In this document: positions 201 through 40,700 of the stretch, in pieces
How the letters are laid out: every line of letters starts with the position of its first letter
Numbering within the stretch: the first letter of the stretch is position 1
IMG/VR virus record: IMGVR_UViG_3300009678_000016
Location: 1 to 48,126 of that record
DNA length: 48,126 nucleotides
Source of the DNA: a virus
Lineage: Duplodnaviria; Caudoviricetes
Strand: one strand, 5' to 3'
Position numbers and translations under genes: made by a program
Notes under the pieces: generated by a model
Seen by the model: only the letters and a program-made list of their open reading frames with translations
What the model was told of the DNA's origin: nothing
Databases searched by the model: none

Positions 201-227
201 CCGCGCCCCACGAGTGGATGGTTCAAA
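201..227 (+). repeat. Dispersed 27-bp motif, copy 1
   Basis: CCGCGCCCCACGAGTGGATGGTTCAAA followed by an A-tract. Confidence 0.9.
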
Positions 228-244
228 GGCAAAAAGCCGTAACC

Positions 245-252
245 GGCGATAC
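245..252 (+). promoter_or_regulatory. Putative sigma28-type -10 box (GGCGATAC) for the capsid operon
   Basis: Matches the GGCGATA motif seen before many late genes; intergenic, upstream of 384. Confidence 0.55.
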
Positions 253-383
253 ACACTCAGCAACGCGAAGCAGGCGCTTCTAAGTAATTGTTCCGCAAGG
301 ACACCCGGAAGCGGTCCTCCTCAGACTCCCAAGGTCTTCGCTCCAAAAGAGGAAACAGATTTCTCATTCAGGAGTGAACGACT

Positions 384-935
384 ATGGCCAACCGGGATAA
401 TCCCCACGGCTTCCGACCTTTGATGCGCTCGCTATCCGGCGGACCAGGCGCGGCGACAATGGGCGCGCACAAGCTGGTGGGCTACGGCACCGCGCTTTTC
501 ATCCACGACTGCATTACGCGCGTGGCCAGCGGCCTGAAGTACACGCAGGCGATTTCCGCGGCCATCACACCGGGCACAACCGTGATTGCCGGTGTGAACC
601 TGATCCACGGCGCGGCCTCGACCGCCACCGACCATATCATCGTGCCGGCGGCCGGCTACCAGGTCTTTGAAGCGCAGGACAACAAGGACACCGACGGCAT
701 CGGGGTCGCCGACGTGAACAAGAACTTCAATGTGGAGCTCAACGCCGGCAGCGCTATCACCAAGATTTCGGGCCACGAGATCGACGAATCGACCCTGAAC
801 ACCACCAACACACTGGACGCCAAGCTGGTGGGCATTTTCCGCTCCCCGGACAACCTGATCGATGCCAGTGGCTGGGTACGCGGCGAGTGCATCTTCAACC
901 GCGTGCAGTTCAGCGATCAGACCACGGCGGTCTAA
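384..935 (+). CDS. Capsid-associated (decoration/auxiliary) protein
   Basis: SD AGGAG; MANRDNPHGFRP N-terminus typical of genes directly before this MCP type; position. Confidence 0.65.
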   Translation: MANRDNPHGFRPLMRSLSGGPGAATMGAHKLVGYGTALFIHDCITRVASGLKYTQAISAAITPGTTVIAGVNLIHGAASTATDHIIVPAAGYQVFEAQDNKDTDGIGVADVNKNFNVELNAGSAITKISGHEIDESTLNTTNTLDAKLVGIFRSPDNLIDASGWVRGECIFNRVQFSDQTTAV

Positions 936-944
936 GGAGCCATC

Positions 945-1865
945 ATGCAAATCACAGGATCTTTCACTAACTTCTTCGACACCACGATGCTCCCCGCGAT
1001 CACCGGGAGCGTGTGGGAAGCGTTCGACGCCAAGCCCAAACAGGGGCTGATGCTGCTGGGCAACGAGAGCACGCAAAAGAAAATCATCCAGAAGGCCGGA
1101 GTGACCGGCGTCGGACTGCCCGCCCTGGTGCAGGAAGGCGCGGACACCGACACCGATACCTTCGTGCAGCTTCCGACCAAGACCTACCGCATCGCCAAAT
1201 ACGGCCTGGGTATCGGAGCTTCGCGCGAGCTTGTGGCCGACGATGAGCACGGCATCATCACCCAGCGCTCCGAAATGCTGGGCGAATCCATCGCCGAGTC
1301 GATCGAGATTCAGGCGTTCAGCGTCCTGAACAACGGTTTCGACGAGACCAACTTCCCCGGCCCGGACGGAAAAGCGCTTTTCTCGCTAACCCACCCGGCG
1401 TACAAAGCCGGCGGCGTGCGGATCAACCTGCTTTCTTCGGCCGCCGATCTGGACGTGGCGTCTCTCGAGCTGGCGCTGATCGACTACGAAAACATGGTCG
1501 ACCATCGCGGCTTCTTCCAGCGGCTGCCCACCCCGCGGCTTCTGGTCTCTCCCACTAACCGGTTCAACGCCTACGAAATCACCAAGAGCAATCAGCGGTC
1601 GGACACGGCGAACAATGCCGTGAACGCCTTCAAGTACGGCGAGAACGGCAACATCGAGCCCATGGTTTCGGCTTACATCACCGATCCGGATTCGTGGTTC
1701 CTGGTGGCTCCGAAGAAAAACGGAATGCTGTGGGTCTGGAGAGAGCGGCCTTACACCGCCAAGGACTATTTCGAGAAATCGGAAACCGGCGTGGTGTATC
1801 TCCGGTACCGCGCGGACTTCGGTTTCCACTCCGACCGCGGCGTCTACGGGACTCCAGGAGCCTAA
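945..1865 (+). CDS. Major capsid protein (Mu gpT-like family)
   Basis: SD AAGGAG; DGKALFSLTHP, DLDVASLELAL, YITDPDSWFL and terminal RGVYGTPGA motifs; 306 aa. Confidence 0.85.
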   Translation: MQITGSFTNFFDTTMLPAITGSVWEAFDAKPKQGLMLLGNESTQKKIIQKAGVTGVGLPALVQEGADTDTDTFVQLPTKTYRIAKYGLGIGASRELVADDEHGIITQRSEMLGESIAESIEIQAFSVLNNGFDETNFPGPDGKALFSLTHPAYKAGGVRINLLSSAADLDVASLELALIDYENMVDHRGFFQRLPTPRLLVSPTNRFNAYEITKSNQRSDTANNAVNAFKYGENGNIEPMVSAYITDPDSWFLVAPKKNGMLWVWRERPYTAKDYFEKSETGVVYLRYRADFGFHSDRGVYGTPGA

Positions 1866-1868
1866 CCC

Positions 1869-2444
1869 ATGGCGCGCAATCAGACCAAGCTATCGCGTCT
1901 CGTGCTGAACGCGAACCGGACGGACGCCAATGCCATCGCAACCGTGCCGCTGATCGTGAAGGCGGTAGCCGGGCAGACCGGGGACCTTCAGCAGTGGCAG
2001 GATTCGGCCGGCGCCATCTGGCAGCGCGTCGGACCCTCCACCAGCGCCTTCGGCATCGGGCTGCAGTTCCGGGTGGCCCGCGCGAAATACGACTTCTCCG
2101 TTGACGGCGGCGGCGCGCCCGGCCTGATCTCCCTCGCTACCACGGCGGTGATCCCGGATGACGCCATCGCCATCGGCGGCTGCATCAACTCGATTGTGGC
2201 CGGCGCGGGCGTAAACGCCACCATCGCATTCGGCACCTCGGCGGGTTCGGCCGCGAATTCGCTGAAGGCGGCTACGGCCGTGGCTTCCTTTACTACCGAC
2301 GCCCTTCTCGCGGTGGTTCCTCTGGCGGCGGCGAGCTTTTTCAAGATGACGGCCGCCGGCGAGATCACCATGACCACGGCAACCACGGCTCTGACCGCCG
2401 GACTCTTCGAAATCACGGTCTGGTACATCGTGGCGGCGGGGTAA
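1869..2444 (+). CDS. Virion structural protein, hypothetical
   Basis: Ala/Gly/Thr-rich ORF directly after the MCP. Confidence 0.65.
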   Translation: MARNQTKLSRLVLNANRTDANAIATVPLIVKAVAGQTGDLQQWQDSAGAIWQRVGPSTSAFGIGLQFRVARAKYDFSVDGGGAPGLISLATTAVIPDDAIAIGGCINSIVAGAGVNATIAFGTSAGSAANSLKAATAVASFTTDALLAVVPLAAASFFKMTAAGEITMTTATTALTAGLFEITVWYIVAAG

Positions 2445-2735
2445 ATGCCTGAGTCCATCCGGCCGACCGATGCACTGGCCAACGCGCCTCCCACTGGGGT
2501 GAGGCGCGTCGTCAATCAGCTCTATACCAATGACGGCTGCCTGATTGTGGAGCCGGTCACCGGCGCTCAGGTCGCACTGGGCGACGTGAACGGCAATGCA
2601 ATCTCGCTGGCCGGCGTGGTGCGGACGCTCGAGCTGCTGCTCGAACAGGCGAGGATCACCAATTTTCTGCTGGCTCAACTGAAAGAGCCCGGCACGATTT
2701 CAGAATTTCCATCAACGTACGGGGCAACCCAATAG
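2445..2735 (+). CDS. Hypothetical protein
   Basis: TAAATG coupling within the operon. Confidence 0.65.
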   Translation: MPESIRPTDALANAPPTGVRRVVNQLYTNDGCLIVEPVTGAQVALGDVNGNAISLAGVVRTLELLLEQARITNFLLAQLKEPGTISEFPSTYGATQ

Positions 2736-5990: not shown

Positions 5991-6854
5991 ATGACCTACG
6001 GCGGTCTGAAATTTCGTCTCACGAAAGCATTTCCCGGCGTCGATGCGGATCTGATCGAAGGCTGGATATCCGACCGTTACGGCGAAATCCTGGGAGTGCT
6101 TCCCTGGTCGCGTACAGCCGTCCAGTCGATCCTCCTGACCACCGCGCCCTATGCGACCGGCACAGTCGCGGTAACACTCGGCAGCGCCTCGGTGACGCTC
6201 ACATCGGGCACCTGGGTAACCGGCATGACCGGGAGGGCGTTCCGGGTGGGAACGCAGAACGAATTCTACGAGTTCACGTATGCCAGTTCAACTACCGGCA
6301 CGCTCGACCGGGTGTACGAAGAGACCACCGACGCAGCCGCGGCTTACAAGATTTTTCAATCCGTCTATCCGATGCCCACGAATTGCCGGATGCTGGAGGA
6401 CGATGCTTTCTCCACCTTCGAGCTGGGGCCGCTTGAGAGATTCAGCAGATCGCAGCTGAACGCCTCACAGCCCTACCGGAGCGAATACGGGACACCGCTC
6501 GCCTGGTCGCTGTATATGGAAGACGGAACCACCCCGCCCCGGATGCAGGTGGAGCTGTACCCGATTCCCGATGCGGCAATAGGGATCCCGTTCACTTACA
6601 CCGCCGAAGGAACGGCGCTCTCGACGAGCAGCCAAATCATTCAGGTGTGGATGCAGCCCGCGGCCTTGGTCGAAGGGACCACCGCCAAAATCAAGCGCCA
6701 TCTGAAAGATTACGCTGGCGCCCGCGAGCACGACGTTCAGGCGGCCGCCGCGCTGCAACTGATGCTTGGAGCCGAAGCGCAGGGCATGGCTCACATGCAG
6801 ATGCAGTTGAGCGATCACTACACGTCTTACCGCAGGGCCAGGACGTCGCGATAG
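5991..6854 (+). CDS. Head-tail adaptor / tail tubular A-like protein with an inserted beta domain
   Basis: GTPLAW and LYPIPDAA motifs; helical termini; position. Confidence 0.6.
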   Translation: MTYGGLKFRLTKAFPGVDADLIEGWISDRYGEILGVLPWSRTAVQSILLTTAPYATGTVAVTLGSASVTLTSGTWVTGMTGRAFRVGTQNEFYEFTYASSTTGTLDRVYEETTDAAAAYKIFQSVYPMPTNCRMLEDDAFSTFELGPLERFSRSQLNASQPYRSEYGTPLAWSLYMEDGTTPPRMQVELYPIPDAAIGIPFTYTAEGTALSTSSQIIQVWMQPAALVEGTTAKIKRHLKDYAGAREHDVQAAAALQLMLGAEAQGMAHMQMQLSDHYTSYRRARTSR

Positions 6855-7051
6855 CCGCGGCCGCGGATCGACTGAGCCGCCGAGGTCAAAGCAACCACCG
6901 CCGCGGTCGAGGCGTCCACGGATCCACCCAGCCAGTCGCCGCCGGCTATCCACTTTCCGTCGATGATCGCTTCGACGGCGCGCTCGACTTCCAAGGCGCA
7001 GGCTTCGCGTTCCGCGGCTACGGCCAGCTCCTCGGTCGTCACGGCTTCCAT
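6827..7051 (-). CDS. Small hypothetical protein with EREACA motif
   Basis: MEAVTTEELAVAAEREACALEV...SIRGRG; start placed at the ATG at 7051. Confidence 0.55.
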   Translation of the reverse strand: MEAVTTEELAVAAEREACALEVERAVEAIIDGKWIAGGDWLGGSVDASTAAVVALTSAAQSIRGRGYRDVLALR

Positions 7052-7069: not shown

Positions 7070-7279
7070 GTGGATCCGAAGCGCATCTCCGGAGCAGCTC
7101 TTACCACCGCGCCCCCCGAGCAGAACGTTCAAAGCAAAAAGAAGTTCGAGGTTCAACGCTTCGAAGACCTGCAAAAAGCCGTATGGAAAGAGCGGGAAGC
7201 CTGCGCCCGCGTCGTAGAGAACTCACCCCTGGGCAGCTACATCGAAGACACGGCCGCCGAGATCCGGGCGAGGGAATAA
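7070..7279 (+). CDS. Small hypothetical protein with EREACA motif
   Basis: C-terminus EREACARVVENSPLGS..AAEIRAR is similar to the C-terminus of 28936-29367. Confidence 0.6.
   Translation: MDPKRISGAALTTAPPEQNVQSKKKFEVQRFEDLQKAVWKEREACARVVENSPLGSYIEDTAAEIRARE
7107..7133 (+). repeat. Dispersed 27-bp motif, copy 2
   Basis: CCGCGCCCCCCGAGCAGAACGTTCAAA plus A-tract; lies inside ORF 7070-7279. Confidence 0.9.
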
Positions 7280-13985: not shown

Positions 13986-14010
13986 TGCAGAATGATGCAG
14001 GGTGATGCAG
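13983..14010. repeat. Three TGATGCAG direct repeats with 10-bp period
   Basis: Copies at 13983, 13993 and 14003; extra ATGCAG at 14032. Confidence 0.8.
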
Positions 14011-14042
14011 GCGTGGCTCTTGCACCACACAATGCAGGCTTT

Positions 14043-14657
14043 TCATTTCTGCTTAAGTTGTTGATTCTTCGTTCGGGCTGCTTTGGCTTTTCCCCCCTTG
14101 CTCCACCGCGCCATGGCGGGCGTCTTTAGACTCGCCTGATACAGTTCCATCGCCCGTCCCACCGTCATGCCGGGATCGCCTGCGAAGTAGCCAGCCATAT
14201 TTCGTTCCTGATGACGCATCTGGGTGAGAGTTTTCCTGTCCTTCTTCCTCTTCCCTTCCGCCCGCCGCGCATAGTCGTAGGAGTCGATTCGCACGGCCAG
14301 TTCCACGATGGCTGCCCGGTACTGTTCGAGGCTCGACCGGTTCACGTCGATCCAGGCGTCTCCGGCTTTGATCAGCTTCGGAACGTGCTCGTATTCCGGA
14401 AGGGCCAGCCATCCTTGCCGCTCGTCTGGGGCTTTCTCGACCGCCCGCCGCATGGCGCGCTGAGAGGTGGCCGCTACCGATTCGAGGGTAATTTGATCGC
14501 GGAGCGCGGCCCACTCTTCCGGGTTCTCAATGGCGAGCCCCAATGTCACCCGGCAGGCTACATCGGTTGAAGTAAACGGCGTGCCGCGTGCCGCGAGACT
14601 CCGGACCGCTTCGTCGATGGCGGCGGCCAGCTTCTTTCTGTTATTGTCGTTTTGCAT
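14043..14657 (-). CDS. Moron-like hypothetical protein, paralog of 21949 and 23071
   Basis: SD GAGG; YFAGDPGMTVGRAMEL matches YAAGNPGITFGEVQEL. Confidence 0.75.
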   Translation of the reverse strand: MQNDNNRKKLAAAIDEAVRSLAARGTPFTSTDVACRVTLGLAIENPEEWAALRDQITLESVAATSQRAMRRAVEKAPDERQGWLALPEYEHVPKLIKAGDAWIDVNRSSLEQYRAAIVELAVRIDSYDYARRAEGKRKKDRKTLTQMRHQERNMAGYFAGDPGMTVGRAMELYQASLKTPAMARWSKGGKAKAARTKNQQLKQK

Positions 14658-14801
14658 CGTTGGCCACCTCGAATGGCTTGCGTGCCGGGGTCCGCGTTTC
14701 GCGCGCGGACCTCAATAGCATACACCTCAAGGCGGGATTTGTTGCCCGGCTATTTTTCACCGCCTAACTCCAGAAGCACATTGACCGAATCCCCAAGGCA
14801 C

Positions 14802-14828
14802 CCGCGCCCCACGAGTAGAACGTTCAAA
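14802..14828 (+). repeat. Dispersed 27-bp motif, copy 3
   Basis: CCGCGCCCCACGAGTAGAACGTTCAAA. Confidence 0.9.
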
Positions 14829-14844
14829 TTATAAAAATCGGTTG

Positions 14845-14852
14845 GGCGATAA
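14845..14852 (+). promoter_or_regulatory. Putative sigma28-type -10 box GGCGATAA
   Basis: 7 nt before in-frame GTG 14860. Confidence 0.7.
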
Positions 14853-14859
14853 CTCCTCA

Positions 14860-15964: not shown

Positions 15965-15968
15965 CCTG

Positions 15969-18926: not shown

Positions 18927-18957
18927 CGGAAGTACATGGACGAATCAGCCGGTACCA

Positions 18958-18984
18958 CCGCGCCCCACGAGCAGATTGTTCAAA
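18958..18984 (+). repeat. Dispersed 27-bp motif, copy 4
   Basis: CCGCGCCCCACGAGCAGATTGTTCAAA plus A-tract, between convergent genes. Confidence 0.9.
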
Positions 18985-22425: not shown

Positions 22426-22459
22426 AAAAGAAGGCCGCGAAGAAAAAGAAGGCCGCGAA

Positions 22460-24247: not shown

Positions 24248-24324
24248 GGAACAGCGGGTGATGGCCCATGGCTGATCTCAGTGTAGTGAAAGCCAGAAGC
24301 ACATCTCCGCTTCCCCCCGTGCAA

Positions 24325-24351
24325 CCGCGCCCCCCGAGCAGATTGTTCAAA
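24325..24351 (+). repeat. Dispersed 27-bp motif, copy 5
   Basis: CCGCGCCCCCCGAGCAGATTGTTCAAA plus A-tract, between convergent genes. Confidence 0.9.
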
Positions 24352-24362
24352 CCCAAAAAAGT

Positions 24363-26666: not shown

Positions 26667-26708
26667 TCGAGTTCTCTCCTTTTTTTTCCTACGCTGGCCC
26701 AACTTCAA

Positions 26709-26903
26709 CTAACCCTCAGGCGCTTCGGTTTCAGGGGAAGAGGTTGGGCCGGGTGCCCAAGCCTTCCCGTTCAAAATACGAAATAGGTTCGCCCCGCAGC
26801 CATCGCAAAGATCGTAATGGAACGCTCCGCTAACCTCCACGGTCTCGCCGATCTCTGGGTCCTTGATCGTATTGCCGCACGCATCGCAGTATCGAATTGT
26901 CAT
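26709..26903 (-). CDS. Small Zn-finger protein
   Basis: YCDACG..DLCDGC. Confidence 0.55.
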   Translation of the reverse strand: MTIRYCDACGNTIKDPEIGETVEVSGAFHYDLCDGCGANLFRILNGKAWAPGPTSSPETEAPEG

Positions 26904-27148
26904 TCGATAACTCTCCCCATGTGCTCGCAGACAAGTGTTCCCGGATCGCGCAGCTCCGTGAATAGCTCCGTGACCACCTCCTGAGCTGATGGATTCGCTT
27001 GGTAATAGATCCCTCCGCATGGGCACCGTAGGCTTGTGGCTGGCCATTGAACCCAGACCGGGAAGGGAAACCTATCGGGATATTTCTGAGGCAGAGTAGC
27101 CCATTTGGGTGCCGCTGCCGCACATGGATGCTCCACCAGAAACTGCAC
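26900..27148 (-). CDS. Hypothetical protein (start uncertain)
   Basis: Fills the operon gap; ATGA coupling at its 3' end. Confidence 0.35.
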   Translation of the reverse strand: MQFLVEHPCAAAAPKWATLPQKYPDRFPFPVWVQWPATSLRCPCGGIYYQANPSAQEVVTELFTELRDPGTLVCEHMGRVIE

Positions 27149-27212
27149 TTCCCGCGCTGGCCCAACCGAAGAATCCCCGGAGCCTCGCGACTGCTTTGCA
27201 CGAACAACAGAC

Positions 27213-27476
27213 TCAGCACGGTCTGCCAATAGACACCTCCTCTTCTCCCGTAGCACAGGCCCAATGCACCGGAAGAGCTACAGCGTCATAACATCGTCCA
27301 TTCCGTGCTTTCCGGCGTTCTTCCGGATCCGGACTTGGTCCGATCGGCACCAGCGTATAAAAGTCTCCAAGGACAAGGTACTCTCCACACGCCGGGCATT
27401 GCGCTGCCGGGAGCTGATGCAGCAGCGGATTATTCGCAGTCACGCGAAACTGGCGGAGGTTGGGATGGAGCGGCAT
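27213..27476 (-). CDS. Hypothetical Zn-binding protein
   Basis: CPACG..VHWAC; coupled. Confidence 0.6.
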   Translation of the reverse strand: MPLHPNLRQFRVTANNPLLHQLPAAQCPACGEYLVLGDFYTLVPIGPSPDPEERRKARNGRCYDAVALPVHWACATGEEEVSIGRPC

Positions 27477-27701
27477 TTACAAACTCCCGGCTTCCAGCAC
27501 GCCCGCCGGAATTTCGTATGGGGTGAAGTTCGGGTTCGTCGCGTTGAGATCGTTTATGAACTGAAGCCACCTGTAGAACATTTTTCGATCATCGGTCCGG
27601 AGGCATTGCCCTAACGCGAAGCCCATCATTATAGTCAGTCGAGCGAATTGATCGCGGGTCATTTCGAGGGTCACGCGCTCGCCTTGCAACGTGTACGTCA
27701 T
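27477..27701 (-). CDS. Hypothetical protein
   Basis: SD AGGAGAG; NPNFTPYEIP. Confidence 0.6.
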   Translation of the reverse strand: MTYTLQGERVTLEMTRDQFARLTIMMGFALGQCLRTDDRKMFYRWLQFINDLNATNPNFTPYEIPAGVLEAGSL

Positions 27702-27927
27702 GCGACACTCTCCTATTTCAAAGGGCGCGGTTGGTACAAGCTCTGAGCACTCGTAACCAGCGTTGTGCCGCGCCCCCTATCGAAGGGAAGCCGTGTCGCG
27801 CACACGGCGGCGTTTCCGCCCATAGCGGAATCGATGACGGATCCAGGCCAGCGGCCCTTCCAAGCGTGATTTACACCATCGCCGCTTTTCCCCACCGCTG
27901 GTTTGGATTTGGATCCGCCAAACTGTT

Positions 27928-28326
27928 TCACCGGAAATCTCCGGCGAGGGATCGAAGTACGGCGCGGAGGTCGGCGACGTCGACCAGGAGAAACCCGTAG
28001 CGGGAGTTCTTCATCCGGTCGATCACGGCCGTGGGGGATTCCACCCACTGAAGGCTTTTGCCGATCTCCACCACCAGGAACGGACCCGCGAATTCCATCA
28101 GCTTCAGTCGGCGCCGCCGGAGGAATGGCAACGGAATGCCTTTGACTCGGAGCTCCCGGACGATCAGGGCGTGCAGTACGTCGGACGATTCCCAGATGCG
28201 GGAGTGTCCCACCTTCCGGATCCGCAACGCTCGATGGTCGTCCCACCACTGCAATTCGCGGAGCGTGCAGCCGGTGATCTCGGCTACCTCGCGCGTGGAG
28301 TAGGTTCTCTTTTGAGAAGGACTCAT
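27928..28326 (-). CDS. MerR-type HTH DNA-binding protein
   Basis: YSTREVAEITGCTLRELQWWD..R.W...V..LR.KGIPL. Confidence 0.75.
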   Translation of the reverse strand: MSPSQKRTYSTREVAEITGCTLRELQWWDDHRALRIRKVGHSRIWESSDVLHALIVRELRVKGIPLPFLRRRRLKLMEFAGPFLVVEIGKSLQWVESPTAVIDRMKNSRYGFLLVDVADLRAVLRSLAGDFR

Positions 28327-28514
28327 GAGCAGCCTGCCTTTTCGCGCACAGCCGGCGCGGGTGCTTCGGGGGCTTTCGATTGGGCCGGGGTGGATGTGCC
28401 GGCGAGCGGGTGAAACAGCTTGAACTCGAGAACGGTATGCCGGCGTTTGTATTCGCAGGCGGGACAGCCTGGGGCCGGGGTGCGGTTGATGGTGAGATCG
28501 TTGACGGGGTTCAT
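28323..28514 (-). CDS. Small hypothetical protein
   Basis: MNPVNDL..CPAC..HPLAG; coupled. Confidence 0.5.
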   Translation of the reverse strand: MNPVNDLTINRTPAPGCPACEYKRRHTVLEFKLFHPLAGTSTPAQSKAPEAPAPAVREKAGCS

Positions 28515-28816
28515 TGAATGGTCTCCGGTTTTTGAAATTGCTCCAGCTTGCGCTCGGGCAGAGCGTGGCCGCGGGGATCGGGATCGCCGGTTTGGACGCG
28601 CCGCTGGATTTCGCGGCCGATTTCGCAAAGACAGAAATCGGTAACGCCGATCAGCCCGGTACCGTTGCAACCCGCGCACCTCCCCCACCGGTTTTTCATG
28701 CCGGGTTCCGGCGCCGCCGGCACACTCTCCGGCCGGTCACGCTTCTCAATCGCTGCACGCAGAGATTCGGCGAGCGCTACAGCTCTGGCGTAAGCGTCAT
28801 CGAGAGGGTCGCTCAC
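28511..28816 (-). CDS. Hypothetical Zn-finger protein
   Basis: SD GGAAGGAG; CAGCNGTG..FCLC. Confidence 0.55.
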   Translation of the reverse strand: MSDPLDDAYARAVALAESLRAAIEKRDRPESVPAAPEPGMKNRWGRCAGCNGTGLIGVTDFCLCEIGREIQRRVQTGDPDPRGHALPERKLEQFQKPETIQ

Positions 28817-28935
28817 AATAGGGCTCCTTCCGTGTGATCATAGTGTCTCGCTGGGTCGCTGTCAGCGTTCGAATGCGGAGCGCGGCGGTCGCCTACATCG
28901 GCCGCCGTACCGCAGCCTATGTAGGAGGCACTTCT

Positions 28936-29367
28936 ATGGAACTCGCGTTCGGAAAGTTTAAGGGTCTTTCTGTCGATGACCCGGAAGTTAAAACGAAGTA
29001 TCTCGAATGGCTTTACGGAGAAATGATTACTACCTCTGAAGCCATCCAGGCGGAACTTGCTCGACGGGAGCAAATAGAAGCCGGAGACCTGAGCATGGCG
29101 GAGCGAATCGTTTTCTCCGGAACCCGCCAACTCGCCAAAGAATACAAGGACAAGCCCGAAATGCTGCGGCAACTCGCTGGAGCTGAGGCCGCACTCTCCG
29201 CGGTGTTGGCGAAATATTTCGGCGATCAAGCTGAAGATGAAGAAGTAGATCCAGACGTGCTCTTTGCTATTGAGCGCGAGGCTTGCGCGCAGATCGTGGA
29301 GAATTCGCCACACGGCAGCGATATCACTGCGACCGCACAGAAAATCCGAGCGCGGGGAAATCATTAG
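28936..29367 (+). CDS. Hypothetical protein with FGKFKG (DUF3820-like) N-terminus and EREACA C-terminus
   Basis: SD AGGAGG; MELAFGKFKG..YLEWL; antisense to its neighbours. Confidence 0.7.
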   Translation: MELAFGKFKGLSVDDPEVKTKYLEWLYGEMITTSEAIQAELARREQIEAGDLSMAERIVFSGTRQLAKEYKDKPEMLRQLAGAEAALSAVLAKYFGDQAEDEEVDPDVLFAIEREACAQIVENSPHGSDITATAQKIRARGNH

Positions 29368-30602
29368 CCACCGGCTCCCTTTGCGCGACGCGTTAACTCG
29401 GCGTGGAGGTTGCTCGCCATCTCTCTGACCTCTAGGGATTCGGTGATGTCGTTCATCGTCGCTTCGCAATTCTTGATGTTTTGCAAAAGCTCGATTTCCG
29501 CCCATTCCTGAACCCGCGACTCGACGGCCGCGGTATCGTGCGTTGTTTCCATCCAGGTCTCGCGGGCCTTCACGATGGTCCTCATCAGAACGGGCGTTCC
29601 TACTTTGCCCCGTTTCAGCCGGTCATCAAGGATCACAAAAAAGTGATAGAGCGGAACCTCGCCGAGTGCGGTACGGGCTTTCTCCAGATCGTCAGAATCT
29701 ACCCACACCTTGCGCGCAGTCAGGCCGACCTTCAGCGCGTCCGGCGGGCGGGCGGGCGGCTCTGGTGACCCCTTAGAGCGCCCGCCCGCCGCCTTTAAAA
29801 CTTCTATCGAAGAAGAACGAGGGAGAGACTTGTCCTTGGGTGCTGAGGCTGAGGCTGAAGCATATAAGGAAGGGGAACCCTGTACACCGTTGGATTCCGG
29901 TTCGTACGAAGTGCCGGGGGTAGTTTGTACGAAGTCGGCAACGCAACTCTGTACAAAGTCGGGCTCGGCCAGCAAGCTGAGTTGCACGTATTTGAACGCG
30001 GCCGGGCGGCGCTTCGGGAGCCGCTTTTTCGGTACCCCGATCTCCTGAAACATGGTATTCTCGACTCGTTCATCTATGGATCTGAGTACCGCTTGCCCCT
30101 CCGCGAAGAAGACTTTCCGCCAAGCTAAATATGCGTCTCTTTTGGAAATCGCGGCTTTTTTGCGGTCCGCCGGGAGCTTTTTAATGAAATCAGCAAGATA
30201 CCCGGAATTCCAACTCTGTACAGAGTTGCTCTGATCCCCTTTTGTTCGCCTCTTACAGGCGTGGGGAATGTCGGCGCAGAGCCAGATTTTCCGGTCTTTC
30301 GCTACCCGTAAAATCCCCTCGATCTGAGCCCCGTTGAGTTCATTGCGCGCGGTTTGAATCTTCCACCCCAGTTCCAGCGCCATGTTTTCGACGTAGAGGG
30401 TTTTGCCGTGTTCATCCACGCAGTAGGGAGACTCGTGGCGGTACGCCGTGGTCTTCGATTTGACCCATGCCTGCACCCGGATGCGGGCAGTTTCGCCGCG
30501 GTGCAGGTTAATTAGGTTCTGGTCTGGTGGTTCCGGATCGTAGCGGCCGGACTTCGAGCCCATCGCCTTCATGAGGGTGGTATTTCTGTCGCTTACCTTC
30601 AC
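29364..30602 (-). CDS. Putative replication initiator protein
   Basis: Largest early ORF; wHTH-like MALELGWKIQTARNELN; internal iteron-like repeats. Confidence 0.55.
   Translation of the reverse strand: MKVSDRNTTLMKAMGSKSGRYDPEPPDQNLINLHRGETARIRVQAWVKSKTTAYRHESPYCVDEHGKTLYVENMALELGWKIQTARNELNGAQIEGILRVAKDRKIWLCADIPHACKRRTKGDQSNSVQSWNSGYLADFIKKLPADRKKAAISKRDAYLAWRKVFFAEGQAVLRSIDERVENTMFQEIGVPKKRLPKRRPAAFKYVQLSLLAEPDFVQSCVADFVQTTPGTSYEPESNGVQGSPSLYASASASAPKDKSLPRSSSIEVLKAAGGRSKGSPEPPARPPDALKVGLTARKVWVDSDDLEKARTALGEVPLYHFFVILDDRLKRGKVGTPVLMRTIVKARETWMETTHDTAAVESRVQEWAEIELLQNIKNCEATMNDITESLEVREMASNLHAELTRRAKGAGG
29743..29960. other. Putative replication origin inside the Rep-like gene
   Basis: GTAC-centred repeats at 29882, 29904, 29927 and 29951; GC-rich inverted repeat at 29743-29793; related perfect palindrome at 30211-30228. 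Confidence 0.5.
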
Positions 30603-30689
30603 ACTTCACCAACTTCCTTCGCTGGCCCAACCTCCGCGGCTGGGACCGGGCGCGACTTCTTTGCACGAACAGAACGTTGTATCTTTCGG

Positions 30690-31007
30690 CTACCCACTTG
30701 GCACCGCCCGTTTCGCTATTTTTCGCCCTTCTGTGGTGATCCCATAGATACGCGGATAGTCCGTGTTGAATAATTCGATCCAGCCGCTTTCGATCAGCTT
30801 ACGAAGGGTCTTTCCAAGAATCCGGCGGCGTCCCCGGGTGAGCGTGGTATCGACCAGATTTATGTAGCCGGAATACTGGTGGATGGTCCAGTCCTGGACG
30901 TGCATTCGGTCGAGGATGAGCCATTGAACATGGGTAGGCGGACGATCTTGCGCCACGCGCATTTTGAGCGCTTCGGTGGGAGAGGAAGAGGTTGGGCCGG
31001 GGTTCAT
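30690..31007 (-). CDS. Hypothetical protein, possibly winged helix
   Basis: KTLRKLIESGWIE..YGITTEGR; ATGA coupling. Confidence 0.55.
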   Translation of the reverse strand: MNPGPTSSSPTEALKMRVAQDRPPTHVQWLILDRMHVQDWTIHQYSGYINLVDTTLTRGRRRILGKTLRKLIESGWIELFNTDYPRIYGITTEGRKIAKRAVPSG

Positions 31008-31315
31008 GAGGAAGCCTCAAGGCTCCGGCGAGCCATCTCATCCAGTTCAGCGTCGGTCAGTTCGCGGCGCGGCCGTGGCGGGGCTGAGGCTGCCTGCTGG
31101 CGGCGTTTCCGCTGTGCTTCGGCATTGTGAGCGATCACGGCATCGCGGTTGCGCTGATAGAACTGGTGTCTTGCTTTGCGGTTTCTGCAGGTCTTGCAGG
31201 CTCCGCACGAACACCCCGGTACGGGTCCCGGTTTCAAATGGCCGATCTCGCCGGCAGCCTGGAGACGCTCACGGCAATAGCGGCAGGAGATGAGACGGCA
31301 TTCGCAGCGTTTCAT
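31004..31315 (-). CDS. Cys-rich hypothetical protein
   Basis: CECRLISCRYC and CSCGACKTC. Confidence 0.55.
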   Translation of the reverse strand: MKRCECRLISCRYCRERLQAAGEIGHLKPGPVPGCSCGACKTCRNRKARHQFYQRNRDAVIAHNAEAQRKRRQQAASAPPRPRRELTDAELDEMARRSLEASS

Positions 31316-31542
31316 GACGCCACCACGGGCTTCAGCGCCGTCACCGCTCGCTGAATGATCTCCTCAATCTCGAGTAGCCGAGCCTCGGAGACGGTGTGCT
31401 TTGGCGGTACGGCGCCCTCGGTCCGCTCCATCAGGTTTTCGAGGGCCTCGGCTGCCAGGGGGTTCTGGAAGCACCAGCCGCGCTTGTGCCAGCCGTCGCG
31501 AGCGATATGCCAGCCTCGGGAGCGAAGGAAGGGGTACTTCAT
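31312..31542 (-). CDS. Hypothetical protein
   Basis: Coupled at both ends. Confidence 0.55.
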   Translation of the reverse strand: MKYPFLRSRGWHIARDGWHKRGWCFQNPLAAEALENLMERTEGAVPPKHTVSEARLLEIEEIIQRAVTALKPVVAS

Positions 31543-32177
31543 GGCTGCACCGCCGAGCCCGCTGCCCTCTTCGCCTCACCGGTGCTGAACGCTCCGTAGC
31601 AGCGCTTGCGCATTTCCTCTAGGAACAGCGCGCCTTCCCGTGGGACGTAGCCCATTCTGGTTTTGACCCAGTGGCGGAATTCCTGCATGTCGCTGGTGAG
31701 GTCCTTGACCAGCAGTGAGCCATTCTTCGCCGCCACCTTCGCTGTTTTTTTCTGAAAGAGGCGAGCGGTCGGGATGAACATCCGAAGTTCACCGCCGACT
31801 ACAATTACCGACAGATCGCCGCGGCCGTAGACGGTGGCGCGGGCCGTCGGAAACTCTGTCCGGAGTGCCAGAGAAACGTTGTCGGGTATCTCCATCGCCT
31901 TCATCCCGTACAGAAAATTCAGAAACGTCTTTGATGGATTGGCTAGCGGAGGCGTGCCGCGCCCCTCAACCGCCTGCTCGAAAGAGGCGAAGACCCCAGT
32001 GGACGCTGCAAGGTCCAGGAACTCGCGGTCATGCTTCGAGAGGCTGTCCAGCCAGTCGGTGTCCGGTTCATTTTTGGCGAAGGTGCCAAAGCTGGTTTCC
32101 AGCTTGAATCGGACGGACTCTCCACAGTGGGGGCACTGCCCAACCCAGGAGATGATGCGACGTTCGCCGCCGCTCAT
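31539..32177 (-). CDS. Hypothetical protein with N-terminal CPHCG ribbon
   Basis: SD GAGG before MSGGERR; first gene of the long leftward operon. Confidence 0.65.
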   Translation of the reverse strand: MSGGERRIISWVGQCPHCGESVRFKLETSFGTFAKNEPDTDWLDSLSKHDREFLDLAASTGVFASFEQAVEGRGTPPLANPSKTFLNFLYGMKAMEIPDNVSLALRTEFPTARATVYGRGDLSVIVVGGELRMFIPTARLFQKKTAKVAAKNGSLLVKDLTSDMQEFRHWVKTRMGYVPREGALFLEEMRKRCYGAFSTGEAKRAAGSAVQP

Positions 32178-32551
32178 AAACCCGCCTCGTGGCACACCCG
32201 TGCCGTAACACTCACCCGTATAGGAAGAATTGCGTTCATTCCGAAACCTCCATTGCTTTCTACAAGTTGAAGTTGAATGAAACGCTGGGAAGGTTTATCC
32301 TGAAAACGTCGATTCCCTGCGTCTCGTTTAGGTCGGTCACTTGGCTATTCCGGCGAAGGTTTCGGCCTCGTGATCGATGTTTTCCTGCGGCAGGGAGGCG
32401 GCCTGGCGGTGTCCGCTGTGTCGAGAATAGCCGATGGGGTACAATCCCCAAATGCAATTGTTCTCGGCTTCGGTCTAAGTGAAAAATCCTGACCGTACCG
32501 GGACTTTCTCCATAACCCCAGCTCGCGGAAGGGCGCTATGTTACGTGTCCT

Positions 32552-33496
32552 ATGGACACCTCCCCGATTGACCTTCAGACCCTGCTGAGCGAGCGCGCCA
32601 GATACCAGCGAGGGATACTGGCCGACCGCACCTTGAGAGGCTACGCCTACGACCTGGGCCATTTCCGGGCCTGGTGCACAACCATGGACCGGGCATCGAT
32701 GCCGGCGAGCGGCGACACCACCAGCCTCTATCTCACCGGGATGCTGGTCACCGGCAAAAAAGTAACCACCACCAGCCGCCACGCTTCGGCGATCGCGCAC
32801 GCGCACCGGCAGGATGGACTCGAGTCCCCGGTTACTCGAGATATCCGGCAGCTGCTGAGAAACGCCAAGCGGATCCGCTGCGAGCCGGTCCACCAGATGC
32901 GCGCCATCACGGTGGAGGAGCTGCGCCAGATGGTAGGCACGCTGGCGCTCGACGGCAGCCCGAACGCGATCCGGAATAGCTCGATGCTTACGCTGGGCTT
33001 CTTCAGCGCATTGCGCAGATCGAACATAGCGGGCCTCGAGCTGGGCGACGTGGAATTTACTTCCGAGGGAATGATTCTGCGGATACGCCACGAAAAGCAG
33101 GACCGCGAGGGCATCCCCAGACTGATCGGGATCCCGTACGGAACGTCGGAAGAAACCTGCCCGGTCAAGGGACTGCGTGTCTGGCTGGCCTATCGCGGTA
33201 CTTCGGAAGGCGCGGCCCTCTACACTCATACGGAGCCAGGCGCGCATCGCCGGGGCCTGCTGCCCGAATCCTACTGCCGGATCGTAAAGCAGAGCATGAC
33301 GCTGGCCGGCCTCGACTGCACCGACTACGGCGCTCACTCCATGCGCGCGGCCTTCGTCACCGCAGCCTTCGACGCCGGCGCCGACACCATGGTAGTCGCG
33401 GCCCACACCGGCCATCACGATCTGAGGGTGTTGCGCGATTACTACCGCAGAATCAGGCTCTTCAAATCGAACGCGTGCGACAAGATCGCCGTGTAG
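32552..33496 (+). CDS. Tyrosine recombinase, Cre-like
   Basis: Catalytic set LRRSN, HEKQD, HSMRA, HTGH, YY; SAM-like N-domain TLRGYAYDLGHFRAWC; TCPVKGLRVWL. Confidence 0.9.
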   Translation: MDTSPIDLQTLLSERARYQRGILADRTLRGYAYDLGHFRAWCTTMDRASMPASGDTTSLYLTGMLVTGKKVTTTSRHASAIAHAHRQDGLESPVTRDIRQLLRNAKRIRCEPVHQMRAITVEELRQMVGTLALDGSPNAIRNSSMLTLGFFSALRRSNIAGLELGDVEFTSEGMILRIRHEKQDREGIPRLIGIPYGTSEETCPVKGLRVWLAYRGTSEGAALYTHTEPGAHRRGLLPESYCRIVKQSMTLAGLDCTDYGAHSMRAAFVTAAFDAGADTMVVAAHTGHHDLRVLRDYYRRIRLFKSNACDKIAV

Positions 33497-33807
33497 GTTT
33501 TCTCTCTGCCGCGCGATGGCTGAATTTTCTGGAATCACATCGGCCCCAATCACGAGGCTTGCTGTGGTGGCGACCGGGTGATTGTGCCCTCGTGTGACGA
33601 GAGCCCGGCCGCCGACCACAAACTCAAACCGGGAGCTTACCCCGGCTGAAGAATCATCACACACCGGAAGAAAAATAGCTATGGGACATTTGTACCGGTT
33701 GCAAAATCGCGTGAATTTGATAACCTGATTCACGTTCTGCCTCCCGGCCCTCTTTGCATTTCAAAAGAAGTTTTTCTTGAGCGGAAAACTGCGCGGCTAA
33801 AAGGCAC

Positions 33808-33840
33808 TGGCCTGGATGCGTTCGTAGCGCGTCCAGGCCA
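33808..33840. repeat. 13-7-13 inverted repeat
   Basis: TGGCCTGGATGCG-TTCGTAG-CGCGTCCAGGCCA (one mismatch). Confidence 0.8.
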
Positions 33841-34018
33841 CTTGAAATTCCGATAATGGCGTGTTATTTTCAAAACTGTTTTCGACACTCGGGGGGTCTC
33901 CAGGAAACCTGGGCGAGGGGCCCCCTCTCCTGCCTTTCTTAAAATTCCAATGGTTACAACCTTACTCCCGCGACTGTTCGCGGTCAAACAGTGGCGCGTT
34001 TTGTTCATCCCGGAACAC

Positions 34019-35833: not shown

Positions 35834-35860
35834 CCGCGCCCCACGAGTAGATTGTTCAAA
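35834..35860 (+). repeat. Dispersed 27-bp motif, copy 6
   Basis: CCGCGCCCCACGAGTAGATTGTTCAAA plus A-tract. Confidence 0.9.
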
Positions 35861-35872: not shown

Positions 35873-36250
35873 TTACAGCCTCTCTCTCATTTCCGCACAA
35901 TACGGAGATCCACAGGGACAATCGTCTGGATGCAGGCCTGGTGAGGTGGTGTCTCCCCTCTGCGATCCTGGATTCTGCATTGCCCATCTGGCGAGGCCTG
36001 CGCGGTTGCCTACCTCGAGCTCGCGGTACAGCCTGCTCAGGTCGTTGGCAATGCCGCGCACACCGGTACCCAGTGCGTGTGCAATGGATTTATCGCTCGC
36101 CCCCTCGCAGACAGCGCGGACGATCTGCTGCTCACGGGGACTGAGCTGTATGTCGCCGTTCGAATCATGTCTCAAGGTTTTGTGGGAGCTGGTGATTCTC
36201 CCGAAGCCAGCCCCCCACATGCACAAAACCCAACTTATCCCAGGGTACAA
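35873..36250 (-). CDS. LuxR-type HTH regulator (start uncertain)
   Basis: LSPREQQIVRAVCEGASDKSIAHALG..LYRELEVGNRAGL. Confidence 0.75.
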   Translation of the reverse strand: MYPGISWVLCMWGAGFGRITSSHKTLRHDSNGDIQLSPREQQIVRAVCEGASDKSIAHALGTGVRGIANDLSRLYRELEVGNRAGLARWAMQNPGSQRGDTTSPGLHPDDCPCGSPYCAEMRERL

Positions 36251-37786: not shown

Positions 37787-38007
37787 TCCGGGTAGCGGAC
37801 GGCGCCACGCTCATCGTGTTCGCAGCCGAGGCGCACGGCGACACCGAATTCTCGCTGCCAATTGAAATCTTTCTGCTGCTGGCGAAAGAGGCGCGGACCA
37901 TCACCGAGTTCCGCACCATGTTTATTTTGGAATCGCGGATGGGCTGCACGCCCGGGAAGTTGCAAGCCAAGCGCCTCGCCCAAACGGCGAAAGCGGCGGC
38001 GGGGTAA
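37783..38007 (+). CDS. Hypothetical protein
   Basis: ATGA and TAATG coupling. Confidence 0.5.
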   Translation: MIRVADGATLIVFAAEAHGDTEFSLPIEIFLLLAKEARTITEFRTMFILESRMGCTPGKLQAKRLAQTAKAAAG

Positions 38008-38447
38008 TGGCCAAGCGCCCCCAGCCCTGCAAAAATCCCACGGTGCGCAAGCAGACCCGGCGCGCGATCGCGAAGAAGCTGGTTCAGAGGAAAGGCCCGA
38101 AGCAGATCGGCAAAGAACTGGGCATGTCGCGCCAGAATGTCAATTTTCATATCCGGGCGCCAGAGACGCAGGCATTCATCCGCGCAGCCCTGGACCCGTA
38201 CCTGGATGAGATCGCAGGACTGGTTCGCCCGGCGCTCAAAGTGGTACGGATCGCGCTCACCGGCAAGCGCGTGGCTACAGCGGACAAGCTCAGAGCCGTT
38301 AAAACGCTGGGCTATCTCATGGAGTTGGCAGAAGGGAGAAAAACCGATGGCGACGCTTCAGATTTGCCCCCGCGCTGGCACGGCACGCTCGAACAGCTCC
38401 TCATCCTGCACCACACCACGATCCACGTCCAGTCTCAGGCAGCGTGA
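38007..38447 (+). CDS. HTH protein, candidate terminase small subunit
   Basis: PKQIGKELGMSRQNVNFH HTH followed by helical DKLRAVKTL; 2.3 kb upstream of terL. Confidence 0.5.
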   Translation: MAKRPQPCKNPTVRKQTRRAIAKKLVQRKGPKQIGKELGMSRQNVNFHIRAPETQAFIRAALDPYLDEIAGLVRPALKVVRIALTGKRVATADKLRAVKTLGYLMELAEGRKTDGDASDLPPRWHGTLEQLLILHHTTIHVQSQAA

Positions 38448-38931
38448 CGCGCTGATCGAGCAGCACATCGGCTGGGCCCGTGACATCGCGGTCAAGGTGG
38501 CTGCCCATCTTCCGACGTGGTTTCATGCGGATGATCTGATGGGGCTCGCCGCGATCGCACTTCTGAACGCGGCGGCGAAGTACGATGCGGGCCGCGGCGT
38601 CCCCTTTCGAGCGTACGCGAGATTGGCGGTCGAAGGGGCATGTTATTCGGCAGCACGAAGGAACGAATACCGGGAGCGGGCACACGCAGAACTGCCCGAA
38701 GAGGCGGCGAGGGAAGAAAGCCCGAAAGCCAGAAATCGTGCTTTACCGGCAGCCGTGTGGGACCTTCCTCCCGATCAATACCGCGTGATCGAACTCTGTT
38801 ACCTGCACGACCTGACCGTCGAAGCAGCAGCGGCACGGATGCGGATTTCACCGAGTAAGGCGAGTCAGTTTCACCGGGCGGCGCTCCAATCGCTGAAGCG
38901 GGCGCTGGGTGAATCGAGAATGGCGGCATGA
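38347..38931 (+). CDS. RNA polymerase sigma-70 family factor, FliA/WhiG (sigma28)-like
   Basis: Region 2 DDLMGLA..AAAKYDAGRGVPFRAYARL.VEGA; region 4 LPPDQYRVIELCYLHDLTVEAAAARMRISPSKASQFHRAALQSLK; start placed at ATG 38347 after GGGAG. Confidence 0.85.
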   Translation: MATLQICPRAGTARSNSSSSCTTPRSTSSLRQRDALIEQHIGWARDIAVKVAAHLPTWFHADDLMGLAAIALLNAAAKYDAGRGVPFRAYARLAVEGACYSAARRNEYRERAHAELPEEAAREESPKARNRALPAAVWDLPPDQYRVIELCYLHDLTVEAAAARMRISPSKASQFHRAALQSLKRALGESRMAA

Positions 38932-39475: not shown

Positions 39476-39483
39476 GGCGATAA
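39476..39483 (+). promoter_or_regulatory. Putative sigma28-type -10 box GGCGATAA (lysis/terminase operon)
   Basis: Intergenic; followed by a short leader with AGAGG and ATG 39503. Confidence 0.65.
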
Positions 39484-39502
39484 CCCCGGCAGAGGTTTTA
39501 GA

Positions 39503-39691
39503 ATGCCGCTGCTGAACGTCATCATCGTGCTGATCGTTGTGGGTCTGTGCCTTTACCTTGTCCAGACATACATCCCGATGGCGGCGCCCATCAAAACCGT
39601 GATCACCGTGGTAGTCGTGCTGGTGCTCTGCATCTGGCTGCTGCAAGTCTTCGGCATTACGGACGGCTCAGTCGGACCCAGGCTCCGCTGA
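39503..39691 (+). CDS. Two-TM small membrane protein (Thivi_2564-like; possible holin)
   Basis: IVLIVVGLCLYLV.TYIPMAAPIK..VVVLV..WLL; lies before the endolysin. Confidence 0.7.
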   Translation: MPLLNVIIVLIVVGLCLYLVQTYIPMAAPIKTVITVVVVLVLCIWLLQVFGITDGSVGPRLR

Positions 39692-39794
39692 AGATGGTAA
39701 TCGGAAGCGGTTGGTACGGCGGCTTCTACTGGGTCATCGTGGACCGGGGCATGCGCGCGCGGCATGTGGTCTACTGCTGGCCGGACTGAATTCG

Positions 39795-40109
39795 ATGGCG
39801 GAAACCCTGCGTCAAAAGCAATCGCGATTCGTGAGACTGCTCCCGGAGCTGATTCACTTTGCGGACGATCACGGGTATGAACTGACGCTGGGCGAAGCCT
39901 ACCGGCCACCGGCACAATCCCGCAAGGGCGGCTCCCTGCATTCGAGCAGGCTGGCCATCGATCTGAACTTATTCCGCGACGGCGTGTGGCTCAAGAAAAC
40001 CGAAGATCACCGTGAGCTGGGCGAGTTCTGGGAGTCCATCGGTGGCACCTGGGGCGGTCGGTTTGGCGACGGGAATCACTACTCAATTTCCCATGCTGGC
40101 CTGAAGTGA
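39795..40109 (+). CDS. M15-family metallopeptidase endolysin
   Basis: GEAYR, SLHSSRLAIDLN, WGGRF.DGNHYS. Confidence 0.85.
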   Translation: MAETLRQKQSRFVRLLPELIHFADDHGYELTLGEAYRPPAQSRKGGSLHSSRLAIDLNLFRDGVWLKKTEDHRELGEFWESIGGTWGGRFGDGNHYSISHAGLK

Positions 40110-40441
40110 GCGAGCCTACTTACGTCGCAACCCCACGCAACTGCTTCCGTTGCGGCGACGAATTCACAGCCACCGATAGCGCGCGAATCTGCCCGAAGTG
40201 CCGGAAGCCGGTCACCCACGAGAGGCACGCGCTACCCTTCAAGCCCCCGAGCTTCCGCGAAAATCAGGTGATCGAGCGCGTGGCGCTGGGCCTGGCGAAC
40301 AAAGAAATTGCCGCGCAGCTACACCTGGCGGAGGGGACCATCAAGGAGTATCTGAACCGGATCTTTCGCAAGCTGAAGGTCACGAACCGAACCGAGCTTG
40401 CGATATGGGCAATCGCTCACAGGGGCGATACGCCAGCATGA
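40106..40441 (+). CDS. Zn-ribbon plus LuxR-type HTH regulator
   Basis: CFRC..CPKC; GLANKEIAAQLHLAEGTIKEYLNRIFRKL. Confidence 0.85.
   Translation: MSEPTYVATPRNCFRCGDEFTATDSARICPKCRKPVTHERHALPFKPPSFRENQVIERVALGLANKEIAAQLHLAEGTIKEYLNRIFRKLKVTNRTELAIWAIAHRGDTPA
40424..40431 (+). promoter_or_regulatory. Putative sigma28-type -10 variant GGCGATAC
   Basis: GGCGATAC-GCCAGC-ATG(40438). Confidence 0.6.
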
Positions 40442-40641
40442 AAACTCTTCTCCTTTTTCTGGTTCTCGCTTGCGCGGCGCAGGCCGGAGTGCTGCGCGTC
40501 GTGTCGTATCCGTTTCGAGTGTCGCCGGTGAAACTGGTGCTGCCGGGTTTGAAGGTGCTCACCTATCCCGTGGTGCATCCGGTGAAGACTCTGAAGCCGC
40601 TGGTGTTTCCCATCGTGCACCCGAAGCGCTTCTGGGTATGA
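40438..40641 (+). CDS. Small secreted cationic repeat peptide
   Basis: Signal peptide MKTLLLFLVLACAAQA; YP..SPVK / YPVVHPVK / FPIVHPKR repeats. Confidence 0.65.
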   Translation: MKTLLLFLVLACAAQAGVLRVVSYPFRVSPVKLVLPGLKVLTYPVVHPVKTLKPLVFPIVHPKRFWV

Positions 40642-40673
40642 ACCGGAAGCATGTGAATCAGACTTCTCGGCAC

Positions 40674-40700
40674 CCGCGCCCCACGAGCAGAACGTTCAAA
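40674..40700 (+). repeat. Dispersed 27-bp motif, copy 7
   Basis: CCGCGCCCCACGAGCAGAACGTTCAAA, 2 nt before the terL ATG. Confidence 0.9.

Follow-up and report, generated by a model that had tools for sequence, protein, structure and literature searches.

A strictly polar 27-bp DNA element dispersed around the genome of a likely temperate podophage

To our knowledge, genome-wide sites that are locked to one strand are known from few phages, and the nick sites that make up the best-studied class are without a known function. Here we report on a strand-locked element in IMGVR_UViG_3300009678_000016, a complete virus record of 48,126 bases that was analyzed over its whole length (the window). A terminal overlap of 123 bp closes the record into a circle of 48,003 bp with a G+C content of 60.5%, and a 27-bp motif occurs in it seven times, at 201, 7107, 14802, 18958, 24325, 35834, and 40674, with all seven copies on the plus strand.

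Among described systems, repressors of the L5 type bind more than 20 asymmetric sites, located both in promoters and in short intergenic spaces, and are active in one orientation only (PMC9283540). As presented there, the stoperators of cluster A mycobacteriophages (L5 and TipsytheTRex) resemble the 27-bp element in being asymmetric, dispersed, mostly located in short intergenic spaces or near promoters, and carried by a temperate phage, and their orientation apparently matters. They are 13 bp long and number more than 20 copies, compared with 27 bp plus accessory boxes and seven copies here, and, unlike them, our motif never flips strand and is evenly spaced. Nick motifs are kept across 61 phages that share little DNA similarity, are unevenly spread, and are 88% coding (PMC11780129). 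With the nick motifs of tf/LUZ24-like, phiKMV-like, and T5 phages, as covered in that paper and in PMC3517423, the element shares its confinement to one strand whatever the gene direction, a similar genome size and copy number, and a bipartite layout like that of phiKMV. It differs from them in being longer, lineage restricted, evenly spread, mostly intergenic, and carried by a likely temperate phage.

What is new is a dispersed, asymmetric, putative phage control site in which strict polarity and even spacing come together with a long footprint and a position at the borders of transcription. We found no published description of the motif or of such a pattern in the open-licence literature searched (supplements excluded). 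The combination was found in one likely temperate phage, which belongs to a poorly studied bacterial phylum.

A conserved core on one strand

Each of the seven copies matches a degenerate consensus with 0 mismatches, and no further site within 7 mismatches of that consensus was found on either strand of the genome; the nearest noncopy sites are three that each lie 8 mismatches away. Twenty-two of the 27 columns are invariant, pairwise identity among the copies is 22 to 26 of 27, and for the invariant columns an order-3 Markov model gives an expected count of 3e-8 per genome. The probability that all seven copies would fall on the same strand is 0.016. The original prediction had listed these seven plus-strand copies at these coordinates, all of which were confirmed, with no minus-strand copies, and its gap sizes were reproduced on the 48,003-bp circle. 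It had also placed six of the copies in intergenic space, in agreement with our own gene calls, by which the copy at 7107 lies within the plus-strand open reading frame (ORF) 7070-7279.

The flanks are approximately 50 to 70% conserved, and two of the seven copies contain in-frame stop codons when read in the single open frame of 7107. Because 22 invariant columns stand beside less conserved flanks and these stops occur, the conservation of the 27-mer reflects purifying selection on a DNA-level site. A protein-coding repeat was ruled out by the same stops together with invariant wobble positions. All seven 27-mers are distinct, as expected by chance (P = 0.29), and their variable columns are mosaic (four-gamete pairs).

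Three copies have divergent contexts. Copy 1 (201..227) stands ahead of the head operon, whose neighbor across the gap is a small leftward gene starting at 159; the late-sigma box GGCGATA is at 245. Copy 2 (7107..7133) is inside small ORF 7070-7279, 51 bp 3' of the late-sigma box at 7056, and the adjacent small leftward gene starts at 7051. Copy 3 (14802..14828) separates leftward gene 14043-14657 from the GNAT/ejection operon, with GGCGATAA at 14845. Two copies are in convergent gaps: copy 4 (18958..18984) follows the stop of the last late gene (18926) by 32 bp, and copy 5 (24325..24351) lies between the rightward block 21701-24247 and a leftward block ending at 24363. Copy 6 (35834..35860) occupies a leftward tandem gap between a LuxR-type helix-turn-helix (HTH) gene (stop 35873) and a gene starting at 35799, and copy 7 (40674..40700) a rightward tandem gap, 2 bp 5' of the ATG of the terminase large subunit gene, terL (40703).

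In exact scans, every match came from this phage or from fragments with 99.98% or greater identity to it. None of 21 relatives of 20 to 80 kb carried the 27-mer (best position weight matrix [PWM] score, 14.5 bits, versus 40 to 46 bits for the copies); this set includes two pairs that resemble near-duplicates, and it was gathered by pattern-based scans that may miss closer relatives. In 71 related portal or terminase loci, the motif was likewise absent, with a best PWM score of 17.0 bits. In the closest relative that covers a motif position, with a terL 78% identical to ours, the motif before terL is absent. Looser viral scans returned 10 and 7 more single matches, none of which had a second copy or a PWM score above 17 bits. 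Exact matches numbered 0 in 185,579 species genomes, and at three mismatches 3 of 401 host-class genomes matched, versus 3 control matches, which is the background level. An interspersed host repeat (REP/MITE) was ruled out on this basis, with the proviso that the true host may be unsampled. The original prediction had named a host repeat and minus-strand copies as findings that would count against it; both were looked for, and neither turned up in the data scanned. Its central proposal of a polar, strand-specific DNA signal held up, and the scans of host and viral genomes add that the signal is phage specific.

The motif appears to have arisen in a single phage lineage. A strict de novo search recovered the 27-mer family in this genome and, at 19-of-22 stringency, no genome-wide asymmetric family in 23 other sequences. 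Repeats of other kinds were seen among the relatives. One of them, G009, has a dispersed palindrome of 17 to 19 bp in four copies (at approximately 1821, 23403, 34027, and 34358 in contig coordinates), which is likely an ordinary operator; G011 has a near-palindromic 16-mer in three clear copies, and G020 has a host hairpin repeat and a sigma-box-like repeat.

Accessory boxes, spacing, and late promoters

The full element is larger than the original prediction had it, spanning approximately 64 bp and consisting of an upstream box (GAAGYRCAT), the 27-bp core, and an A-tract. In four of the seven copies, the box lies on the plus strand at exactly -29 to -21, 20 bp before the core, and matches at 9 of 9 positions: 7078..7086 for copy 2, 14773..14781 for copy 3, 18929..18937 for copy 4 (starting 2 bp past the stop at 18926), and 24296..24304 for copy 5. 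Copy 1 has a 7-of-9 match at the same distance (172..180, plus strand), copy 7 has a degenerate box shifted by one base (40646..40653, plus strand), and copy 6 has none. An A-tract follows the core in every copy except copy 7; A is invariant at +33 and +34, as is C at -3.

Motif positions 10 to 20 recur in the variable left flank as a degenerate inverted copy, with 6.0 of 11 Watson-Crick pairs versus 4.4 to 4.5 in random or shuffled flanks; 0 of 5,000 controls were as high, in a register that was first picked by eye. Hairpins had no advantage over shuffled flanks with RNA or DNA parameters on either strand (P = 0.39 to 0.85). There was no copy-specific covariation of a flank with its own core (P = 0.54 to 0.95), and pairing was no better than with the cores of other copies. 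Because flank pairing is not copy specific and folding energy is no better than that of shuffled sequence, these results point to a double-stranded protein-binding site rather than an RNA or single-strand hairpin. The imperfect dyad GAGY-N5-GTTC, to which the original prediction had drawn attention, is weak and gives no folding advantage. A minus-strand hairpin with the GC block in its loop, an idea formed by eye, was ruled out by the energy and swap tests.

Around the circle, successive copies are 6906, 7695, 4156, 5367, 11509, 4840, and 7530 bp apart. With a coefficient of variation (CV) of 0.33 and a smallest gap of 4,156 bp, the spacing is more even than random (P = 0.004 to 0.007, approximately 0.006) under nulls of uniform placement, placement at any of 78 gene junctions, and placement in 25 gaps of 55 bp or more, on a gene list that we curated ourselves. 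Strand-switch junctions hold five of the seven copies (P = 0.0007 versus all 78 junctions and P = 0.05 versus gaps of at least 55 bp, both post hoc values computed on our own gene calls). Each of the six rightward-to-leftward switches has one copy to its right, either directly or past one to three small leftward genes, and the seventh copy, outside these switches, is the one that precedes terL. Four copies are located at late promoters or gene starts, and in two of the seven a late-sigma box falls at a nearly equal offset from the motif start (+44 for 201 and +43 for 14802). The gap at the position of copy 2 measures approximately 440 bp here, versus 3 to 13 bp in relatives G003, G010, G014, and G016.

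The late-sigma boxes lie outside the element, as does the gene for a FliA/WhiG-like phage sigma factor (38137..38931, plus strand; its true start is further downstream). Boxes of the form GGCGATA(A/C/T) occur on the plus strand at 245, 5974, 7056, 7287, 12429, 14845, 34019, 39476, 40424, and 42997, 6 to 9 bases before the ATG or GTG of many late genes, and their enrichment is limited to relatives that encode the FliA-like sigma. GGCGATAA stands before many late start codons and forms no part of the 27-mer; its density is six times higher in 7 sigma-bearing relatives than in 13 sigma-lacking ones (0.78 versus 0.13 per 10 kb; P = 0.002). GGCGATA(A/C/T) is thus likely to be the -10 box of the phage sigma, giving leaderless late mRNAs, and the FliA/WhiG-like protein likely reads GGCGATAA and not the 27-mer. 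The 27-mer was ruled out as a phage-sigma promoter, since this sigma-tracking -10 box lies outside it.

Neither a sigma-70 promoter match nor a terminator-like match overlaps the three copies in 14000-33900, and none of the seven copies shows a folding advantage, in line with the earlier view that the motif is no simple promoter or terminator. Rfam gave no match at the gathering score in the window and none at the copies even at E values up to 10, and no tRNA was found. A lox-type site was also rejected: no copy is among the inverted repeats with 13-bp arms and at least 11 matches, and the inverted flank is degenerate and lies 13 bp away. Likenesses judged by eye, namely, to dif, F-type oriT, IS91 ends, REP halves, sigma-54 and extracytoplasmic function (ECF) promoters, and the Acidobacteria LexA box, were dropped, as the defining dyad, the spacing, or the second half was missing.

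A possible one-way brake and other readings

We tentatively postulate that the seven sites are polar, stoperator-like operator or roadblock sites directed against rightward (late-strand) transcription. A phage-encoded protein would dock on the asymmetric sites and act as a one-way brake. At 201 and 14802, binding would shield the stretch immediately 5' of the late-sigma -10 box; at 7107, the protein would lie immediately 3' of the box; and at 40674, it would occlude the region where the terminase gene begins. At the other three copies (18958, 24325, and 35834), rightward read-through would be halted before running antisense into leftward early genes, and the even spacing would follow from one site per rightward gene block. 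Asymmetry, accessory boxes at fixed distances, the lack of an RNA or single-strand fold, and placement at transcription-unit borders are all observed in the sequence. That the 21 relatives lack the motif is more in keeping with a fast-evolving regulator than with a core signal for packaging or nicking. The original prediction had argued from the mixed gene contexts of the co-oriented copies against a stoperator role; that argument is not supported, since either orientation fits one of the two neighbors when a gap is divergent or convergent. The sole copy at odds with a rightward block is 35834, which has a rightward gene with a late-sigma box (34019/34034) 1.2 kb upstream. If the sites do act as a one-way brake, stoperator logic would reach beyond actinobacteriophages, and an orientation-specific insulator part would be on offer.

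Several observations weigh against such a brake. The gap 21636-21701, which likely holds the immunity switch, is empty of copies, and the 14-bp palindrome found there is a different sequence. In four of the seven cases, the end of the rightward block is separated from the site by a leftward gene, an arrangement that suits a leftward promoter at least equally well, and the copy at 35834 is in a leftward tandem gap. The even spacing survives the intergenic-gap null and is not a reported stoperator trait, and the site is 27 bp long, versus 13 bp for a stoperator, with only seven copies. At 19-of-22 stringency, the relatives have no equivalent genome-wide asymmetric family of their own that could serve as a replicate. 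No family match to a stoperator repressor (HTH plus stoperator domain) was found among the scanned ORFs, many of them unannotated, in PHROGs, Pfam, or NCBIfam. L5 uses one site as both operator and stoperator (PMC9283540), whereas the likely immunity gap here is without a copy. Because of that empty gap, a site twice as long, and no repressor of this kind being recognized among the scanned ORFs, the motif is not a member of the L5-type stoperator family.

An alternative hypothesis, which we consider unlikely, is that the copies mark programmed single-strand nicks in the DNA of the virion, as in T5, phiKMV-like, and tf/LUZ24-like phages. Nick sites are the only documented class with strand-following polarity across convergent units in a podovirus of this size, and the phiKMV nick consensus is also bipartite with a free middle (PMC3517423). 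The GC block on the minus strand equals the T5 consensus R/GCGCRGG exactly in three of the seven copies and with one mismatch in four, but the T5-like 8-mer occurs 34 times in the genome, 25 of them on the other strand, so that the match means little. The motif is absent from the 21 relatives, evenly spaced, and intergenic in six of seven copies, whereas published nick motifs are the opposite in all three respects. No lineage-specific nickase was found either, as the HNH-like DUF968 gene is common to 9 of 20 relatives without the motif. The nick-site candidate of the original prediction is weakened: the confinement to one strand fits, while the published traits of conservation, uneven spread, and mostly coding location do not. 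We give an equally low weight to leftward promoters or activator sites that would produce antisense RNA over each rightward late block and also drive the small leftward genes beside them. All three isolated leftward genes of the late region, as well as the gene at 35799, have their starts 35 to 145 bp to the left of a copy. On the minus strand, the element shows TTTGAAC preceded by a T-tract, an order that resembles a -35 box with an UP element ahead of it. The region covered by the largest gap (11.5 kb) is already leftward, and 35834 has a TATAAT-like hexamer in place of the upstream box. A -10 box 16 to 18 bp from TTGAAC would, however, land in the GC block, where the three scanned copies have no sigma-70 match. 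The TAnnnT-like hexamers in front of the leftward genes vary in distance (approximately 21, 29, and 78 bp), which is not a fixed geometry, and a promoter does not need an invariant spacer. The spacing itself is explained best by spaced, oriented loading or restart sites for a machine that tracks along DNA over several kilobases (terminase re-initiation, DNA internalization, priming, or fork restart), which we also regard as unlikely. The CV of 0.33, the smallest gap of 4.2 kb, and P values of 0.004 to 0.007 under three nulls speak for such sites, as do the strict polarity, the footprint of approximately 64 bp with its A-tract, and the one copy within an ORF. One copy abuts terL, and of 20 relatives only 4 have a homologue of the putative terS at 38007-38447 (best identity, 35%). 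A core replication, ejection, or packaging signal should nevertheless persist in relatives whose portals are 57 to 81% identical, and it does not; none of the scanned ORFs was recognized as encoding a primase, helicase, RNA polymerase, or HUH protein; and even spacing could stem from module sizes alone. A newly acquired form of this idea, in which the copies might be way-stations every 4 to 8 kb for a one-direction phage machine (packaging re-initiation, DNA entry, or the spread of a silencing or protective protein), seems unlikely to a similar degree. If the element is a nick or loading site, it would offer a compact system for pairing site and protein.

The remaining readings are less probable still. 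Recombination or module-exchange sites, either like the PeSL cassettes or as targets of the Cre-like or serine recombinase, strike us as improbable. The seven differing 27-mers with mosaic variable columns would suit them, as would the position of copies in gaps of varying length among relatives; all-distinct variants, however, are expected by chance (P = 0.29), the element has no conserved inverted arms, and a separate 13-7-13 inverted repeat lies at 33808 near the Cre-like gene. The Cre-like gene is present in 9 of 20 relatives and the serine recombinase gene in 14 of 20, all without the motif. No alternative joints between copies were seen in the contigs of one groundwater metagenome run and a second assembly, both of low depth and possibly the source data, and the run contigs had no breaks or joints at six copies (201 excluded); contigs cannot show nicks. 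The original prediction had listed module exchange as a candidate, which gains no support from arms, recombinase co-occurrence, or contig joints. Like T4-like PeSL cassettes (PMC4122927), the motif is a dispersed intergenic element beside variable small genes; unlike them, it has no sigma-70 promoter match in the three copies scanned and no stem-loop, on which ground a PeSL cassette was ruled out, and it is spread genome-wide, including at core gene borders. Lowest in our estimate, and very improbable, is a degenerate mimic of a host type I-C CRISPR repeat, acting as decoy DNA or as an antisense RNA against the repeat. Five of the seven copies have an exact 11-bp stretch in common with type I-C arrays, which were found in 4 of 301 host-class genomes, along with a weaker 3' match, and the 11-mer has a P value of 0.001 to 0.003 per copy versus dinucleotide shuffles; this comparison was chosen after many others, and the copies are not independent. 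The phage element resembles the solitary repeat units and RNA anti-CRISPRs of PMC10651486 in being intergenic and in carrying that stretch of a repeat from the likely host class. It differs in having seven co-oriented copies and no repeat hairpin, the arm of which is missing, and, with one exact block of 11 out of 33 bases, its identity and coverage fall well short of the 90% required there for solitary repeat units. No Rfam CRISPR family was matched, the variable flanks match nothing as spacers, and no spacer against 38 of the 48 kb turned up in the four array-bearing genomes. We reserve a small probability, between those of the nick, promoter, and loading readings and those of the last two, for explanations outside this list.

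Gene content and neighboring features

The genome encodes a terminase, major head protein, SU10-type adaptor, internal virion proteins, and endolysin, as well as a Cre-like tyrosine recombinase, a serine recombinase, the FliA/WhiG-like sigma factor, and two LuxR-type HTH proteins. The phage is likely a temperate podophage, because recombinases are present and an integrated relative exists. Portal alignment matches came from 68 viral loci as well as from two bacterial genomes under the titles Acidobacteria and Terriglobia, and related prophages were found within Acidobacteria genomes. An acidobacterium is the likely host because portal matches fall in Acidobacteria and Terriglobia genomes. A distant relative (G106:C306; L158, L153, and L154), with a portal 42% identical, is a 47.8-kb contig binned in a host-class genome, and it looks like a whole phage genome.

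By annotation, candidates for the protein that reads the element are the LuxR-type HTH proteins encoded at 35873-36250 and 40106-40441, a MerR-type HTH protein at 27928-28326, and several small unannotated proteins. Three paralogues of 150 to 200 amino acids at 14043-14657 (minus strand), 21949-22425 (plus strand), and 23071-23529 (plus strand) belong to a family of 111 homologues or representatives that matches no named family. They were rejected as the cognate protein, as nothing links them to the motif and phage contig G106 has a homologue yet no motif. The paralogue model is confident (pLDDT 93), with no fold match above a Z score of 5.9, an absence that is not evidence. Atlas and PDB searches with the products of 23526-23993 and 31539-32195 returned nothing usable, and a defence-system search with 24 phage proteins gave no match.

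The divergent gap 21636-21701 contains a sigma-70-like leftward promoter and a perfect 14-bp palindrome, 5' of a gene for a 61-amino-acid zinc-finger protein that is common to 6 of 20 relatives; from this arrangement, the gap is likely the immunity switch. A second repeat family of approximately 45 bp starts with GGCCCAAY, often followed by CCGAAGCRC, and occurs in both orientations, at 19982, 26750, 28386, and 30998 on the minus strand and at 26696, 27159, 30624, and 45539 on the plus strand. It forms three inverted pairs in the early region; relatives show no enrichment, and no inversion joints at these repeats were seen in the metagenome contigs. Between the Cre-like and serine recombinase genes, 310 bp past the former, the 13-7-13 inverted repeat at 33808-33840 (12 of 13 positions matched) is a candidate recombination site. 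The small back-to-back ORFs at 6827-7051 (minus strand) and 7070-7279 (plus strand) both encode an EREAC peptide motif. The pair is an insertion: the virion genes on either side of it are direct neighbors in several relatives.

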